Shown: positions 1 to 58,906 of the stretch, one piece after another
Layout of the letters: each line of letters starts with the position of its first letter
Position numbering within the stretch: position 1 is the first letter of the stretch
Assembly (NCBI GenBank): GCA_964600085.1
Contig: CAZRHU010000002.1
Coordinates: forward strand, 1 to 59,298
Direction of reading: 5' to 3'
DNA length: 59,298 nucleotides
From: an uncultured Candidatus Saccharibacteria bacterium
Lineage (GTDB): Bacteria; Patescibacteriota; Minisyncoccia; JACQLN01; CAZPCT01
The notes under the pieces: model-generated
Databases searched by the model: none
Told to the model about the DNA's origin: nothing
The model's input: the letters and a program-made list of their open reading frames with translations, nothing else
Made by a program: the position numbers and the translations under genes

Positions 1-102
1 AAGGAGTCATTCGACCGGACAGGTCCAGTCACCCGGTCATTCGACCGGACAGGTTTGACCGGACAGGTTTGACCGGACAGGTTTGACCCCTCGGGAGGGG
101 TT
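1..102 (-). repeat. GC-rich tandem-repeat promoter-upstream module, copy A (cut by window edge; its promoter end would lie left of position 1)
   Basis: 14-mer GACCGGACAGGTTT in tandem at 43-56, 57-70 and 71-84, plus degenerate copies and GTCAYYC octamers. These are followed by hairpin GACCCCTCGGGAGGGGT (85-101). Same family as 2129-2194 and 58695-58828. Confidence 0.8.
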
Positions 103-112
103 GTTTGGCCTC

Positions 113-141
113 TTAAAAACACTCAGTTTATACGCTATAAT
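113..141 (+). promoter_or_regulatory. candidate sigma70-type promoter of pilB (TTAAAA-N17-TATAAT)
   Basis: TTAAAA at 113-118, 17-nt spacer, TATAAT at 136-141. The ATG at 149 lies 7 nt after the -10 box, so the mRNA may be leaderless. Confidence 0.45.
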
Positions 142-148
142 ACGAAGT

Positions 149-1813
149 ATGGATAATTCACAAGATGTAGCTAAAAAAAGAGAAGAAAAGCTTCTTGAGG
201 CTAAAGAAGAAGCTCAAGAATCGGAGGCTCAGAGAAAAGCCCAAAAGATAGGAGTTCCCTACCTCGACTTAAAGATGGTTCCTATTGATAGAGATAATTT
301 AACTTTGGTTTCTCTTAAAGAAGCAGAGAGAGCAGGACTGGGAATTGTTAGAAAAAATAAAAAAGAATTAAGGGTTGGTGTCGTTGATATAGAAAACGAA
401 GAAGCAAAACAAATAATAGAACGTCTGGAAAAACAAGGTTTTAAAGTTAAGATTTTTTTAATTTCTCCTCCATCGCTGAGAAAGATTTTAAAAGAATATG
501 AAAAAGTTCCTCTTCAATTTAAGAAAAAAGAGGTCTCTGGACAAGTAGATATAGAAAAATACTTTAAAAAAGGGGGGATTAAAAACCTCTCTGATCTTAG
601 AAAAATAGTAAAGAGTCCTAATGAGGAAACAAGCGAATTATTAGATGTTCTCTTGAGCGCTGCTCTTCTTTTAGACGCCTCCGATATACACGTTGAGCCT
701 CAAGAAAGTAAAGTTGAAGTTCGTTTAAGAATGGATGGAGTTCTTCAAGAAGTGGGAAGTATATCAGAGGAGAGTTATAAACTTCTCTTATCTAGAGTAA
801 AGCTGGTATCAGGTATAAGAATAAATGTTGTAGATATACCTCAAAATGGTCGCTTTACTGTCAGAACTCCTGATTACGAAGCTGAGAGTCGTGTTTCTAT
901 TCTACCTGGCGCCTATGGTGAGTATATAGTCATAAGACTCTTAAATCCTAAGGCGGTTAAGTTAGAGGTTAAAGATCTAGGAATAAGAGAAGAGATATGG
1001 AAAGATATTAAGGAAGAAATAGAAAAACCTAATGGTATAGTCTTGGTAACAGGGCCAACAGGATCAGGCAAAACAACAACCCTCTACGCCTTCTTAAAAC
1101 ACCTCCTAAGACCAGCGGTAAAGATAATCACCCTTGAAGACCCTATTGAGTATCACCTTGAGGGTGTCTCTCAATCCCAAGTTGAACCAGAAAAGGATTA
1201 CACCTTTGATTCAGGCATGCGTTCATCTTTAAGACAAGACCCCGATATAATTTTAGTCGGAGAGATAAGAGATGCAGAAACCGCCCAAACAGCTCTCCAA
1301 GCCTCTTTAACAGGTCACTTCGTCTTCTCTACCCTTCATACTAACGATGCTCCGGGCGCCATACCTCGATTTTTAGACTTAAACGCAAAACCAAAAATAT
1401 TATCGGCCGCCCTTAATGCTGTGATTGCTCAGCGACTAGTAAGAAGATTGTGCTCTGAGTGTAAAGAGCCCAGAAAATTAAAGGGAGAGGAAAAAGAAGC
1501 TATAAAGAAGGAGTTGTCACACCGCAAAGATTTAATAGAAAAGATAGAAGACGAAGAGTTTAATATTTATAAACCAAAAGGCTGTTCAAAGTGTTCAGAG
1601 ACGGGTTATAAAGGAAGGGTTGGTATTTTTGAGGTTTTAAGGGTTACAAAAAAGATTGAAGAGCTTATAAATCAGAACCCTTCTAGACAAGAAGTTTTAA
1701 ACCTAGCAAAAAAGGAGGGGTTTTTAAGTATGTATCAAGACGGCTTAGCTAGAGTTGTTGAGGGAATAACCACCATAGAAGAAGTAGAGAGGGTGGCTCA
1801 AGCTTTAGATTAA
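149..1813 (+). CDS. pilB: GspE/PilB-family type II/IV secretion (type IV pilus assembly) ATPase
   Basis: Walker A GPTGSGKTTT, Asp box, Walker B DPDIILVGEIRD, His box GHFVFSTLHTND and a tetracysteine CSEC..CSKC motif. The N-terminal T2SSE_N-like region starts at MDNSQDV. The TTG start at 83 in the ORF track lies inside the repeat module and is rejected. Confidence 0.9.
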   Translation: MDNSQDVAKKREEKLLEAKEEAQESEAQRKAQKIGVPYLDLKMVPIDRDNLTLVSLKEAERAGLGIVRKNKKELRVGVVDIENEEAKQIIERLEKQGFKVKIFLISPPSLRKILKEYEKVPLQFKKKEVSGQVDIEKYFKKGGIKNLSDLRKIVKSPNEETSELLDVLLSAALLLDASDIHVEPQESKVEVRLRMDGVLQEVGSISEESYKLLLSRVKLVSGIRINVVDIPQNGRFTVRTPDYEAESRVSILPGAYGEYIVIRLLNPKAVKLEVKDLGIREEIWKDIKEEIEKPNGIVLVTGPTGSGKTTTLYAFLKHLLRPAVKIITLEDPIEYHLEGVSQSQVEPEKDYTFDSGMRSSLRQDPDIILVGEIRDAETAQTALQASLTGHFVFSTLHTNDAPGAIPRFLDLNAKPKILSAALNAVIAQRLVRRLCSECKEPRKLKGEEKEAIKKELSHRKDLIEKIEDEEFNIYKPKGCSKCSETGYKGRVGIFEVLRVTKKIEELINQNPSRQEVLNLAKKEGFLSMYQDGLARVVEGITTIEEVERVAQALD

Positions 1814-1822
1814 TAAAAATAC

Positions 1823-1848
1823 AAAAAAGCGCTGGTAAGCGCTTTTTT
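1823..1848. terminator. bidirectional intrinsic terminator
   Basis: AAAAAAGCGC-TGGTAA-GCGCTTTTTT: a hairpin flanked by an A-run and a T-run. It serves pilB (+) and the convergent RNA (-). Confidence 0.75.
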
Positions 1849-2092
1849 CTTTTCTTTCTATTTTTCTCTAACTCCACCTATAAGCCTATAGACAATTCTC
1901 TAGTTTGACCTAGAGAACCCTAAGTCTTGGGAAACACAGGGAGGAGAATGCTCCGAGGATAAGTTCAGTTTAAAGGCCGAAGCCAAAAAACCAATCCGTC
2001 CTAAATCTAAGAGAAAACTCCTGTTATCTATAGGCCTATAAGAAGAGCTTAAAGAGAAGAACAAAAAAGTACAGTACCCCTCCAATACGTAC
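1849..2092 (-). ncRNA. orphan structured RNA of unknown class (rod-like, possibly 6S-like)
   Basis: Own TTGACA promoter and terminator. A 16-bp closing helix pairs 1877-1892 with 2027-2042. It has two G-U wobbles on the minus-strand RNA but C-A mismatches on the plus strand. Internal hairpins include GGC-UUCG-GCC and CUCUAG..CUAGAG. The 61-aa ORF there has no SD and is implausible. Confidence 0.5.
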
Positions 2093-2099
2093 TATCTAA

Positions 2100-2128
2100 A
2101 GGTTAATCTATTATTTTACTCTTGTCAA
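2100..2128 (-). promoter_or_regulatory. promoter TTGACA-N17-TAACCT, fused to repeat module B
   Basis: Reverse complement of 2123-2128 is TTGACA, the spacer is 17 nt, and the reverse complement of 2100-2105 is TAACCT. The upstream flank GGATGACCGGATGACCCC-TTGACA is identical to the one at 58811-58834. Confidence 0.55.
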
Positions 2129-2291: not shown

Positions 2292-3305
2292 ATGGCTGAA
2301 GAAAGAGAAGTAAAACCAAAACAAAGCGAAGAAGATAAGGTTTTAGATCAAACGCTGAGGCCCCATCTTTTAAAAAATTATATCGGTCAAGAACAAATAA
2401 AAGAAAACTTGGCTATCTTTTTATCGGCTGCCCAAAAGAGAAAAGAATCCCTAGAACACGTTCTTCTCCACGGTCCAGCTGGACTAGGAAAAACCACTCT
2501 AGCTTATATAATATCTAGAGAATTAGGTGTAAATATAACCACCACCTCGGGACCGGCTATAGAAAGAGTTGGCGACCTAGCTTCTATCTTAACCAATCTC
2601 AACGACGGAGACGTTCTCTTTATAGATGAAATACATAGAATAAATCGCACAATTGAAGAAGTGCTCTATCCGGCAATGGAAGATTTTATCTTCGATATAA
2701 TTATAGGCAAGGGCCCTTCGGCTAGAACTGTTCAACTACAACTCCCCCGCTTCACCTTAATAGGAGCAACCACTAGAGCAGGGTTGTTAAGTTCTCCTTT
2801 TAGAAGTCGTTTTGGCGCCACTTATCATCTTGATTTTTATAATGATAAAGATATAGAAGCGATTTTGAGCAGGTCTTCTAAAATTTTAAATGTAAAAACT
2901 GATAAAAAAGCTATAGAAATAATTGCTGGGCGTTCTAGACAAACGCCTCGAGTAGCCAACCGCCTCTTAAAGAGGGTGCGCGATTATTCCCAAGTAAAAT
3001 CCAACGGAGAGATAAACAAGGAGATTGCCTCAGTGGCTCTTAGTATGTTAGAAGTTGACCAAAAAGGATTAGAAAAAATGGATAGAAAGATCTTAGAAAC
3101 TATTATAAAAAAATTCAACGGTGGTCCCGTTGGAATTCAAGCTTTAGCTGCCTCCGTTGGAGAGGGACGGGACACAATCTTAGATGTTTACGAACCCTAC
3201 CTTCTTCAGGCCGGTCTTATAATCAGAACCCCTAAAGGAAGAGAGGTGACTAACATTGCCTATAAGCACCTATCCTTAGTTCAGTCGCAAGAAAAGTTGG
3301 TATAA
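2292..3305 (+). CDS. ruvB: Holliday junction branch-migration helicase RuvB
   Basis: AAA+ Walker [12 protein letters not shown], Walker B LFIDEIH, sensor motifs, and full-length collinearity with the RuvB family. Confidence 0.95.
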
Positions 3306-51846: not shown

Positions 51847-51875
51847 AAAAAAAACACCCACGGGGGTGTTTTTTT
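51847..51875. terminator. bidirectional intrinsic terminator (copy 1 of a 30-nt identical element)
   Basis: AAAAAAAACACCC-ACGG-GGGTGTTTTTTT. Confidence 0.8.
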
Positions 51876-51894
51876 GAGGAGACAAGGTGAAAAA

Positions 51895-54301: not shown

Positions 54302-54329
54302 AAAAAAACACCCACGGGGGTGTTTTTTT
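54302..54329. terminator. bidirectional intrinsic terminator (copy 2 of identical element)
   Basis: AAAAAAACACCCACGGGGGTGTTTTTTTGA is identical over 30 nt to 51848-51877. Confidence 0.8.
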
Positions 54330-54344
54330 GATTTAAATTTCCAA

Positions 54345-57866: not shown

Positions 57867-58523
57867 TTAAGAAAAATAAACAGCTTTTTCTATGTGTTCT
57901 ATCTTAGCTCTACCTGTGTTTTTATCCAATATAATTCCAATTACGTCAATCTGCCAATCAATATTATTAGGTAATTTTTTATGAGATAAGTAAAGTTGAC
58001 AAGAACGCATTAATCTTTTTTGCTTTGAGTAAGTCACTTGTTCTTCCGGCCTCATTATATTTGAGCTCATTGTTTTAACCTCAACAAAGACAATCTTCTC
58101 TCTGAATGCATGTATTGAGCTTTGTTGAATTGTTCTACGTGGAACAATTAGTTTGTTTTTGCTAAAAATAGATTTTAATTTATTCCATATTGTTCTACGT
58201 GCTTGTCTGTTCCGTAGGCGGGGAACATTTTGATCTTTTTTCTCATTTTCTAGCTTTCTATTTTTCTCCATAATTGTTCCACGTGGAACAATTCGATCTT
58301 TTTTCTCAATTTTTAATTTTCTATTTTTCTCCATAATTGTTCCACGTGCCTGCCCGTTCCGTAGGTGGGGAACAATATCTTCTTTTTTAGAGCAAATAAT
58401 GTCAATTTCTCCCCATTTTCGACGAAAATTTCTATCAATTATCTTGTAACCTTTTCTTTCTAGGTGTTTTGAGGCTATTTCTTCTCCCCAAGCCCCAATT
58501 TTTATATTTGAACTGTTTCCCAT
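57867..58523 (-). CDS. yraN: YraN/UPF0102 PD-(D/E)xK nuclease-fold protein carrying a roughly 95-aa repeat insertion
   Basis: GAWGEEIASKHLERKGYKII..RKWGEIDII and VFVEVK..QKRL..IDWQIDVIGI match YraN. The normal spacing of about 5 aa between the D and ExK motifs is replaced by IVPRGTI/IVPHLRNGQARGTI repeats. Confidence 0.8.
   Translation of the reverse strand: MGNSSNIKIGAWGEEIASKHLERKGYKIIDRNFRRKWGEIDIICSKKEDIVPHLRNGQARGTIMEKNRKLKIEKKDRIVPRGTIMEKNRKLENEKKDQNVPRLRNRQARRTIWNKLKSIFSKNKLIVPRRTIQQSSIHAFREKIVFVEVKTMSSNIMRPEEQVTYSKQKRLMRSCQLYLSHKKLPNNIDWQIDVIGIILDKNTGRAKIEHIEKAVYFS
58138..58385. repeat. four palindromic repeat units (two short, two long) plus a duplicated 45-nt spacer, in frame inside yraN
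   Basis: Short units AATTGTTC(C/T)ACGTGGAACAATT lie at 58138-58159 and 58282-58303. Long units ATTGTTCYACGTGC(C/T)TG(C/T)C(C/T)GTTCCGTAGG(C/T)GGGGAACA lie at 58199-58238 and 58345-58385. Confidence 0.85.
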
Positions 58524-58594
58524 TTTTTCTTTTTATTGATTTATCAACTCACAGTCGATCCACTGAAGGTTGATAATTTTTTATTTTCTCTTAA

Positions 58595-58636
58595 AATTGT
58601 TCCACGTGCCTGCCCGCTCCGTAGGTGGGAACAATT
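58595..58636. repeat. fifth copy of the long palindromic unit, intergenic
   Basis: AATTGTTCCACGTGCCTGCCCGCTCCGTAGGTGGGAACAATT, 72 nt upstream of the yraN start. Confidence 0.85.
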
Positions 58637-58694
58637 TTAAAAATCAATAACTCTATAATTTTTAAGGTTATATAATCTATTATCTTGAGACACT

Positions 58695-58828
58695 GAACCT
58701 GTCCGGTCGAACCTGTCCGGTCGAACCTGTCCGGTCGAACCTGTCCGGTCGAATGACCGGATGACTGGATGACTGGATGACCCCTCAAGAGGGGTCGAAC
58801 CTGTCTGGTCGGATGACCGGATGACCCC
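58695..58828 (+). repeat. GC-rich tandem-repeat promoter-upstream module, copy C
   Basis: GAACCTGTCCGGTC x4 (58695-58750), GAATGACCGGATGACTGGATGACTGGATGACC, hairpin GACCCCTCAAGAGGGGTC (58779-58796), a further 14-mer, then GGATGACCGGATGACCCC abutting TTGACA. Confidence 0.85.
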
Positions 58829-58857
58829 TTGACAACTTATCATTTTATTGATATAAT
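58829..58857 (+). promoter_or_regulatory. consensus sigma70 promoter TTGACA-N17-TATAAT
   Basis: TTGACA at 58829-58834, 17-nt spacer, TATAAT at 58852-58857. Confidence 0.75.
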
Positions 58858-58906
58858 AGAACACATAGTTCCAATTTTGTCCAAAATGCTTTAACAAGGA
58901 GAAATT

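Follow-up and report, generated by a model that had tools for sequence, protein, structure and literature searches.

What is encoded in the 478-nt gap between pilB (83–1813, plus strand) and ruvB (2292–3305, plus strand) of this bacterium? The organism is a member of the candidate phyla radiation, within its Parcubacteria/Minisyncoccia group, and no species representative has a RuvB more than 72% identical to its own. The genomes of bacteria in this radiation are about 1 Mb in size, and few regulators have been recognised in them. A sequence-only reading of the window—the whole 59,298-nt stretch of DNA that was analysed—had placed in this gap an orphan, structured RNA, which might be a 6S-like rod or a novel sRNA. 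The comparative analyses described here indicate that positions 1817–2093 of the minus strand constitute a stand-alone gene for a structured noncoding RNA, with its own predicted sigma-70-type promoter and intrinsic terminator. This RNA belongs to an uncatalogued family, absent from Rfam 15, which keeps a fixed position beside ruvB across the Parcubacteria group.

The transcription unit and its fold

The minus strand of the gap carries the −35 hexamer TTGACA (2123–2128, running from 2128 to 2123), which was read from the sequence and sits at the edge of a repeat module, and, after a 17-nt spacer, the −10 hexamer TAACCT (2100–2105, running from 2105 to 2100), which aligns with the TAAAAT of the relatives and is weaker than their −10 elements. 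At the other end, a bidirectional intrinsic terminator (1823–1848, both strands) with 11 pairs and T-runs on either side is common to the RNA and the convergent pilB. The gap, the promoter and the terminator are thus all present where the sequence-only reading had put them. The predicted primary transcript of about 275 nt (1817–2093, minus strand) takes its start (about 2093, 7 nt past the −10 hexamer) and its 3′ end (the U-run after the terminator) from consensus motifs, and the positions of promoter and terminator are kept in the homologues.

The transcript (1817–2092, minus strand) folds at −106.1 kcal/mol, as compared to −70.1 ± 4.8 kcal/mol for 200 dinucleotide shuffles (z = −7.6). None of the 200 shuffles folds as well, and the plus strand of the same region reaches only −76.8 kcal/mol. 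The 16-bp helix between 1877–1892 (CCTATAAGCCTATAGA) and 2027–2042 (TCTATAGGCCTATAAG) is fully paired, with two G-U pairs among the 16, only as minus-strand RNA; on the plus strand, these two pairs become C-A/A-C mismatches. In the minimum free energy (MFE) fold, the polypyrimidine/polypurine flanks lengthen this helix to about 45 bp. The long rod expected from these flanks and the GGC-UUCG-GCC tetraloop hairpin (GGCUUCGGCC, 1975–1984) were both confirmed, as was the strand dependence of the helix.

The elements of the RNA, all on the minus strand, are arranged in the following manner. A leader hairpin at the 5′ end (2069–2092) is specific to the window and constitutes an insertion relative to the homologues. 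The closing stem, P1, has its family-conserved strands at 2024–2047 (5′ strand) and 1872–1895 (3′ strand), and in the window these are extended to about 2068 and, through a purine-rich tail, to about 1851, respectively. P2 is assigned from the family alignment to 2011–2022 (5′ strand) and 1943–1954 (3′ strand); the MFE fold of the window favours two local hairpins over P2, so that its 5′ strand has a local hairpin as an alternative. The P3 arm (1956–2002) consists of an invariant AGGA/UCCU base, a likewise invariant GGUUUGG/CUGAAC(C) helix with tandem G-U pairs, and a variable tip (UUCG or a variable hairpin), which is the GGC-UUCG-GCC hairpin in the window. The P4 hairpin (1918–1941) presents the loop UGUUUCCCAAGA(C/U)U in invariant alignment columns, and the variable P5 hairpin (1896–1917) is missing from the distant homologues shown. 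The core of the RNA (1850–2100) is unique within the 59-kb window, as determined by a BLAST search with 1800–2295.

Homologues beside ruvB in the Parcubacteria group

In each of the three nearest genomes (L001–L003), an nhmmer search with the window RNA matched the sequence just upstream of ruvB; when these loci were aligned, an invariant block of 19 nt and a conserved promoter emerged. A scan of metagenome contigs that was blind to synteny, with the pattern TTAGGA-N40-70-CCCTGTGTTTCCCAAG, returned 13 loci, every one of them a genuine full-length homologue. A covariance model, R1, was built from 15 sequences. It scores the pattern-scan loci at 136–194 bits and the window copy, itself part of the R1 seed, at 136 bits (E = 2.5e-38); within its clade, the window copy has diverged furthest. 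Moreover, R1 finds 15 distant copies with scores of 11.6–37 bits, in loci labelled Yanofskybacteria, Moranbacteria or other Parcubacteria. Twelve of them have E-values between 6e-9 and 2e-4, and the three weakest are L012 (E = 0.005), L009 (E = 0.08) and L011 (E = 0.19). All 15 lie 60–400 nt upstream of ruvB, and the assignment of the distant matches rests on position and score together. In 478 kb from 62 other ruvB loci, almost all from outside the candidate phyla radiation, R1 gave no significant match (best E = 0.97).

In total, 32 homologous loci were collected, comprising 17 close relatives and 15 distant ones. The RNA is therefore not the orphan that it had seemed, and is one member of a family across the Parcubacteria group. 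The relatives have one copy per locus. An apparent second copy in L082 proved spurious, the regular-expression match there being due to a DnaA box. A scan of viral contigs for the P1 arms yielded two identical phage loci from IMG/VR (L094, 8943–9083; L095, 3306–3446), which contain a nested inverted repeat between a primase-like and a parB-like gene, with 10-nt arms (CTGTAGGCAA/TTGCCTACAG) shared with P1. A phage link was rejected, as the interior is unrelated and R1 does not match these loci, and the sharing of the arms is probably a coincidence.

The promoter, TTGACA (TTGACT in two cases)-N17-TAAAAT (TAGAAT or TAAACT in single cases), stands at the same distance from the RNA in all 16 close homologues, and a promoter of the same kind precedes at least eight of the distant ones. 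Directly 3′ of the RNA, many loci have a G+C-rich hairpin followed by a U-run. Among the 28 loci whose gene context was examined, the RNA adjoins ruvB wherever the flank suffices. With the RNA set forward, ruvB is divergent upstream, and a gene for a PilB/GspE-type ATPase is convergent downstream in most loci; in L013, dnaN replaces the latter as the neighbour of the RNA. The whole unit of promoter, RNA and terminator is inverted in L003 (1074–1256) and L091 (3975–4156), with promoter and structure intact, and pilB, the RNA and ruvB are co-directional there owing to the inversion. This inversion points to an autonomous, trans-acting RNA gene rather than an antisense or leader element.

The neighbouring ATPase gene also varies. 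In L009, L010, L012, L020 and L054, the PilB/GspE ATPase downstream of the RNA has 1000–1100 aa, and the two proteins inspected (from L010 and L020) are tandem duplications with two complete ATPase modules. PilB is tandem-duplicated in the Moranbacteria-type loci.

Covariation and the consensus structure

The consensus structure was derived by RNAalifold from a MAFFT alignment of 15 sequences that was not fitted to structure (A2). It comprises the 23-bp closing stem P1 (A2 columns 4–27 and 169–192), the 11-bp P2, and P3, P4 and P5. In this alignment, 96.2% of cells are paired, as compared to 36–61% when the 3′ partners are slid by 1–3 columns, and compensatory changes occur in 27 of the 61 pairs, as compared to 9–13 for the slid partners. 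None of 500 shuffles reaches any of the observed pairing measures, although the sequences are phylogenetically related and the shuffle statistics overstate their independence. The compensatory pairs cluster in the outer part of P1 (13 of the 23 P1 pairs), in P2 (7 of the 11) and in P5 (4 of the 5).

The window copy contributes changes of its own. In its inner P1, A-U stands in place of the G-C of the relatives, and in P4 the U-G and G-C of the other sequences have given way to U-A and G-U. The 16-bp helix likewise covaries, with A-U and G-U pairs in the window replacing the G-C and U-G pairs of the relatives. Thus, the pilB–ruvB gap of the relatives holds homologues with clear covariation, and the proposal of a stand-alone, structured minus-strand sRNA, about 270 nt long and outside all known families, is borne out by both. 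In addition, many G-U pairs are invariant, for example those at A2 columns 21/175, 30/109, 58/87, 59/86, 115/132 and 120/127. Read from the plus strand, each of these would turn into an A-C mismatch, and the RNA is accordingly assigned to the minus strand.

How far does this structure extend beyond the close clade? In a wide alignment of 20 sequences, P1 and P3 covary again, in 23 of 33 pairs. The distant members, folded singly, adopt the same overall architecture; most of them have an additional 5′ hairpin (P1a), and P5 is absent. The best conserved segments in the whole family are the inner 10 bp of P1 (CUGUAGGCAA/UUGCCUACAG), the UGG/CUG core of P3, and the YCCUC motif. In the outer half of P1, the pairing is kept and the sequence is not. 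The junction of the window's clade has only 0–1 unpaired nucleotides on the 5′ side, between P1 and P2, and its 3′ side forms the hairpins P4 and P5. P4 is a 5-bp stem with a 14-nt loop, UGUUUCCCAAGAUU, inside which RNAalifold adds four weak U-A/G-U pairs. All 15 close-clade sequences share this loop to the letter, except for one position, which differs only in the window. Inspection by eye for tertiary pairing of the P4 loop with P3 or with the internal loop between P2 and P3 found complementarity in some clades and none family-wide.

The 3′ tail between P1 and the terminator differs among the loci. L001, L002, L084, L086 and L087 have two to four copies of (A)CGAAU there, about 7–20 nt apart, and the window tail is instead purine-rich, of the AGAAA type. 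The (A)CGAAU copies may offer a multimeric RNA-binding protein an optional array of binding sites.

Known RNA families and coding potential

At gathering thresholds, the 4227 models of Rfam 15 detected only seven tRNAs in the whole window and nothing in 14 homologous loci. With permissive filters and E ≤ 10, only sRNA models matched in 1750–2300, all on the terminator hairpin, and the L005 and L001 copies gave nothing meaningful. ARAGORN found neither a tRNA nor a tmRNA in 1700–2300. A literature search for an RNA of this kind in Patescibacteria or Parcubacteria, or for lineage-specific noncoding RNAs in the candidate phyla radiation, returned no description. The absence of the family from Rfam 15 agrees with the novel sRNA that had been considered possible.

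The individual classes can be rejected on more specific grounds. 6S RNA models have no match at gathering thresholds, and none at E ≤ 10 when the copies of the window, L005 and L001 are scanned. Moreover, the 6S rod with its large two-strand bubble does not describe the junction, in view of its closed 5′ side, the covarying P2 and the hairpins P4 and P5 on the 3′ side. The 6S-like rod of the earlier proposal has therefore been abandoned in favour of a 3- to 5-way junction at the end of a long closing stem. The scans also sustain the earlier failure to find signatures of RNase P, tmRNA or SRP RNA. The SRP models, which include the GNRA tetraloop and the conserved symmetric loop of domain IV, have no match at E ≤ 10, and the P3 tip is UUCG or variable. 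RNase P RNA has no Rfam match, and the core is only about 180 nt long with no long-range pseudoknot predicted. tmRNA was found by neither ARAGORN nor Rfam. P1, a duplex of 23–26 bp formed from the transcript ends, resembles the a1/a2 duplex of retrons, and this is a resemblance only: no reverse-transcriptase gene is adjacent in any of the 28 loci examined, and a retron noncoding RNA was rejected.

The gap also contains a 61-aa ORF with a TTG start (1900–2085, minus strand), the translation of which the sequence-only reading had held out as a point against the RNA. Its presence in the window is what speaks for a coding function. Among 22 homologues there is no common frame, start or length; the indels are not multiples of three, and the substitutions track base pairing rather than codons. 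Since no ORF is conserved, that of the window is regarded as spurious, and we consider a small-protein gene to have next to no probability.

The repeat module and the DnaA-box-like motifs

Immediately upstream of the promoter, and outside the RNA, lies a repeat module (2128–2195) composed of GGATGACY 8-mers and GGTCGAAC units. Module copies also occur at 1–95 and 58690–58835. In general, the module consists of tandem GGATGACY 8-mers and 14-mers (GGTCGAACCTGTCC) and is bounded by GGGG/CCCC. Does the RNA owe its promoter to this module, as had been supposed? A 25-nt identity at the module edge, including TTGACA, connects the RNA promoter with 58811–58835, and at 58830–58858 the module-edge TTGACA forms TTGACA-N17-TATAAT for a plus-strand gene. 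The sharing of the −35 hexamer with the abutting module therefore holds. The derivation of the promoter from the module does not, as the relatives lack the module at the RNA locus and have TTGACA-N17-TAAAAT at the same place, which indicates that the RNA promoter is ancestral. The −35 hexamer is ancestral in position, and is now common to the RNA promoter and the module. The module itself may be an array of sites for transcription factors, or else a mobile element that carries a promoter. A MITE or dispersed repeat was rejected as the nature of the RNA, the core being single-copy in the 59-kb window; only the upstream module (2122–2190) recurs.

The window contains further repeats. At 58128–58630, there are at least four copies of a 56–63-nt repeat with the palindrome TTGTTCCACGTGGAACAA or a GC-rich hairpin (GTTCCACGTGCCTGCCCGTTCCGTAGGTGGGGAAC), and their irregular spacing (63–260 nt) shows that they are not CRISPR-like. 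In addition, two 30-nt terminator-like hairpins (AAAAAAACACCCACGGGGGTGTTTTTTTGA) at 51848–51877 and 54302–54331, 2.4 kb apart, are 100% identical.

Between the RNA promoter and ruvB, 12 of the 16 close loci (L001, L002, L003, L082–L085, L087–L089, L091 and L093) have DnaA-box-like 9-mers (TTATCCACA, with at most one mismatch). These boxes number one to three per locus, lie 60–210 nt upstream of the RNA core, and are always on the RNA-sense strand; in several loci, a second, weaker box can be seen by eye about 11 nt away. The distant clade has none. The window has only TTTTCCACA at 2253–2261, inside the ruvB promoter, and the repeat module stands where the relatives have boxes. The arrangement suggests that DnaA or another factor may regulate the divergent promoters. 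An oriC was rejected: the boxes are too few, and their absence from the distant clade argues for a regulatory site. The GC skew of the window is uninformative here, as the locus is too close to the window end.

A model for the RNA and its alternatives

Taken as a whole, the data are best explained, in our judgement somewhat more probably than otherwise, by a stable, trans-acting RNA that binds protein. P1 (23–26 bp, and about 45 bp in the window) opens into a junction that carries the long P2–P3 arm, P4, and optionally P1a and P5. The near-consensus promoter, as in housekeeping RNAs, suggests a stable RNA acting in trans, in a structural or protein-binding role. Since its outer part conserves only pairing, P1 would probably protect the ends there or be a site of processing, for example by RNase III. 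Near-perfect duplexes of 23–45 bp are normally cut by this enzyme. The likely recognition surfaces are the inner P1 (CUGUAGGCAA/UUGCCUACAG) and the P3 core, GG...UGG/CUG...YCCUC with its tandem G-U pairs, and the 14-nt P4 loop, near-invariant in the window's clade, would there be a further surface for a partner. We favour protein recognition because the strongest sequence conservation is found inside helices and internal loops and not in a linear seed, this pattern being the one basis for the step to a protein-binding scaffold. Whether the RNA is a housekeeping RNA of the Parcubacteria group—an RNP subunit, a ribozyme, or an unorthodox functional replacement of 6S RNA, at a locus kept since the Yanofskybacteria-, Moranbacteria- and Minisyncoccia-type lineages separated—is a more speculative matter, and we regard it as a possibility of rather low probability.

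The near-invariance of the P4 loop can also be read in another way. The C/U-rich loop UGUUUCCCAAGAUU, possibly with the preceding CUCCC, would be the seed with which a regulatory sRNA pairs to G-rich ribosome-binding sites, as in the RsaE/RoxS-type sRNAs, and the rest of the RNA would be a stabilising scaffold. The identity of the 14 nt throughout the close clade, with a single exception in the window, the often C/U-rich P4 loops of the distant members (CUCCU in L012 and L013, UUCCU in L031), and the stand-alone gene with its own promoter and terminator all agree with this. However, the loop is not kept family-wide (GUUUUGUAAAU in the L005 clade, A/U-rich in L010), the most conserved elements are inside P1 and P3, and an RNA of 180–275 nt with five helices is far more elaborate than typical seed-type sRNAs; hence we deem base pairing with mRNAs unlikely. 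The approximately 180-nt core, the strong housekeeping-type promoter, and the two arms of about 25 bp (P1 and P2–P3) around a central junction recall instead a 6S-like mimic of an open promoter that sequesters the RNA polymerase holoenzyme. Some 6S RNAs reportedly have hairpins in their bubble strands (Barrick et al. 2005). Against such a mimic stand the negative 6S scans of three homologues (E ≤ 10) and, in the window's clade, the closed 5′ junction side and the covariation of P2, which leave neither a single-stranded template strand nor a bubble, and we consider it very unlikely.

The clustering of invariant nucleotides at junctions, internal loops and tandem G-U pairs, together with class-wide conservation at one locus, would also fit a ribozyme or the RNA subunit of a Parcubacteria-specific housekeeping RNP. 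With no pseudoknot or other tertiary covariation detected, a P4 loop and a P5 that are not kept family-wide, and no similarity to any Rfam ribozyme model, the probability of this specific explanation is slight. The fixed position between pilB and ruvB, the sequence conservation of both inner-P1 arms, the DnaA-box-like motifs upstream in close relatives, and the module abutting in the window could all be taken as signs of cis or antisense control of pilB or ruvB, or of an element acting as DNA (an inverted repeat, a MITE, a recombination site or an origin-related site). Yet the unit is inverted in L003 and L091 and is still fully conserved. Moreover, the RNA overlaps neither coding region and is single-copy in the window, the invariant G-U pairs point, with the promoter and terminator, to an RNA from one strand, and the DnaA-like boxes are few and confined to the close relatives. 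We therefore hold a cis-acting or DNA-level role to be highly improbable.

What would the stable, protein-binding RNA that we prefer mean for these bacteria? An elaborate RNA that has a near-consensus promoter and has stayed at one locus throughout a group of class to phylum rank is probably important to them. If it is indeed a housekeeping RNA, then it is one retained in some of the smallest bacterial genomes known. The gap, which would otherwise be left empty or be annotated with the spurious ORF, now has a concrete RNA family that can be modelled, added to Rfam and probed.

Comparison with known systems

How does the RNA compare with the systems that it resembles? Like 6S RNA (ssrS; RF00013 and related models), it stands alone behind a strong promoter, measures about 180 nt and has ends that pair into a long closing stem, and a second long arm follows past a central discontinuity. 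In contrast to 6S RNA, this discontinuity is a covarying multi-helix junction and not an open bubble, the window's clade lacks a single-stranded 5′ bubble strand that could template a product RNA, and there is no covariance-model similarity. With the retron msr-msd RNAs, it shares the long closing duplex of the transcript ends around several hairpins, but not the adjacent reverse-transcriptase gene.

The Y RNAs and YrlA, which are associated with Ro60, also have a long terminal stem made from both ends, a conserved segment within a helix, and a variable upper module. They differ from the new RNA in that the latter has no Rfam match, no tRNA-like module (as judged by ARAGORN on the window) and no adjacent rsr (Ro) gene, its flanks being ruvB and mostly pilB-type genes. 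The raiA motif RNA and the larger HEARO, ROOL and GOLLD RNAs are multi-stem, covariation-supported, lineage-restricted classes of unknown function. All of these are in Rfam and none was matched, and the new RNA is distinguished from them by its occurrence in Parcubacteria, strictly as a single copy by ruvB. Like them, it is defined only by comparative analysis, and it is a new family within this familiar kind of orphan structured bacterial noncoding RNAs.
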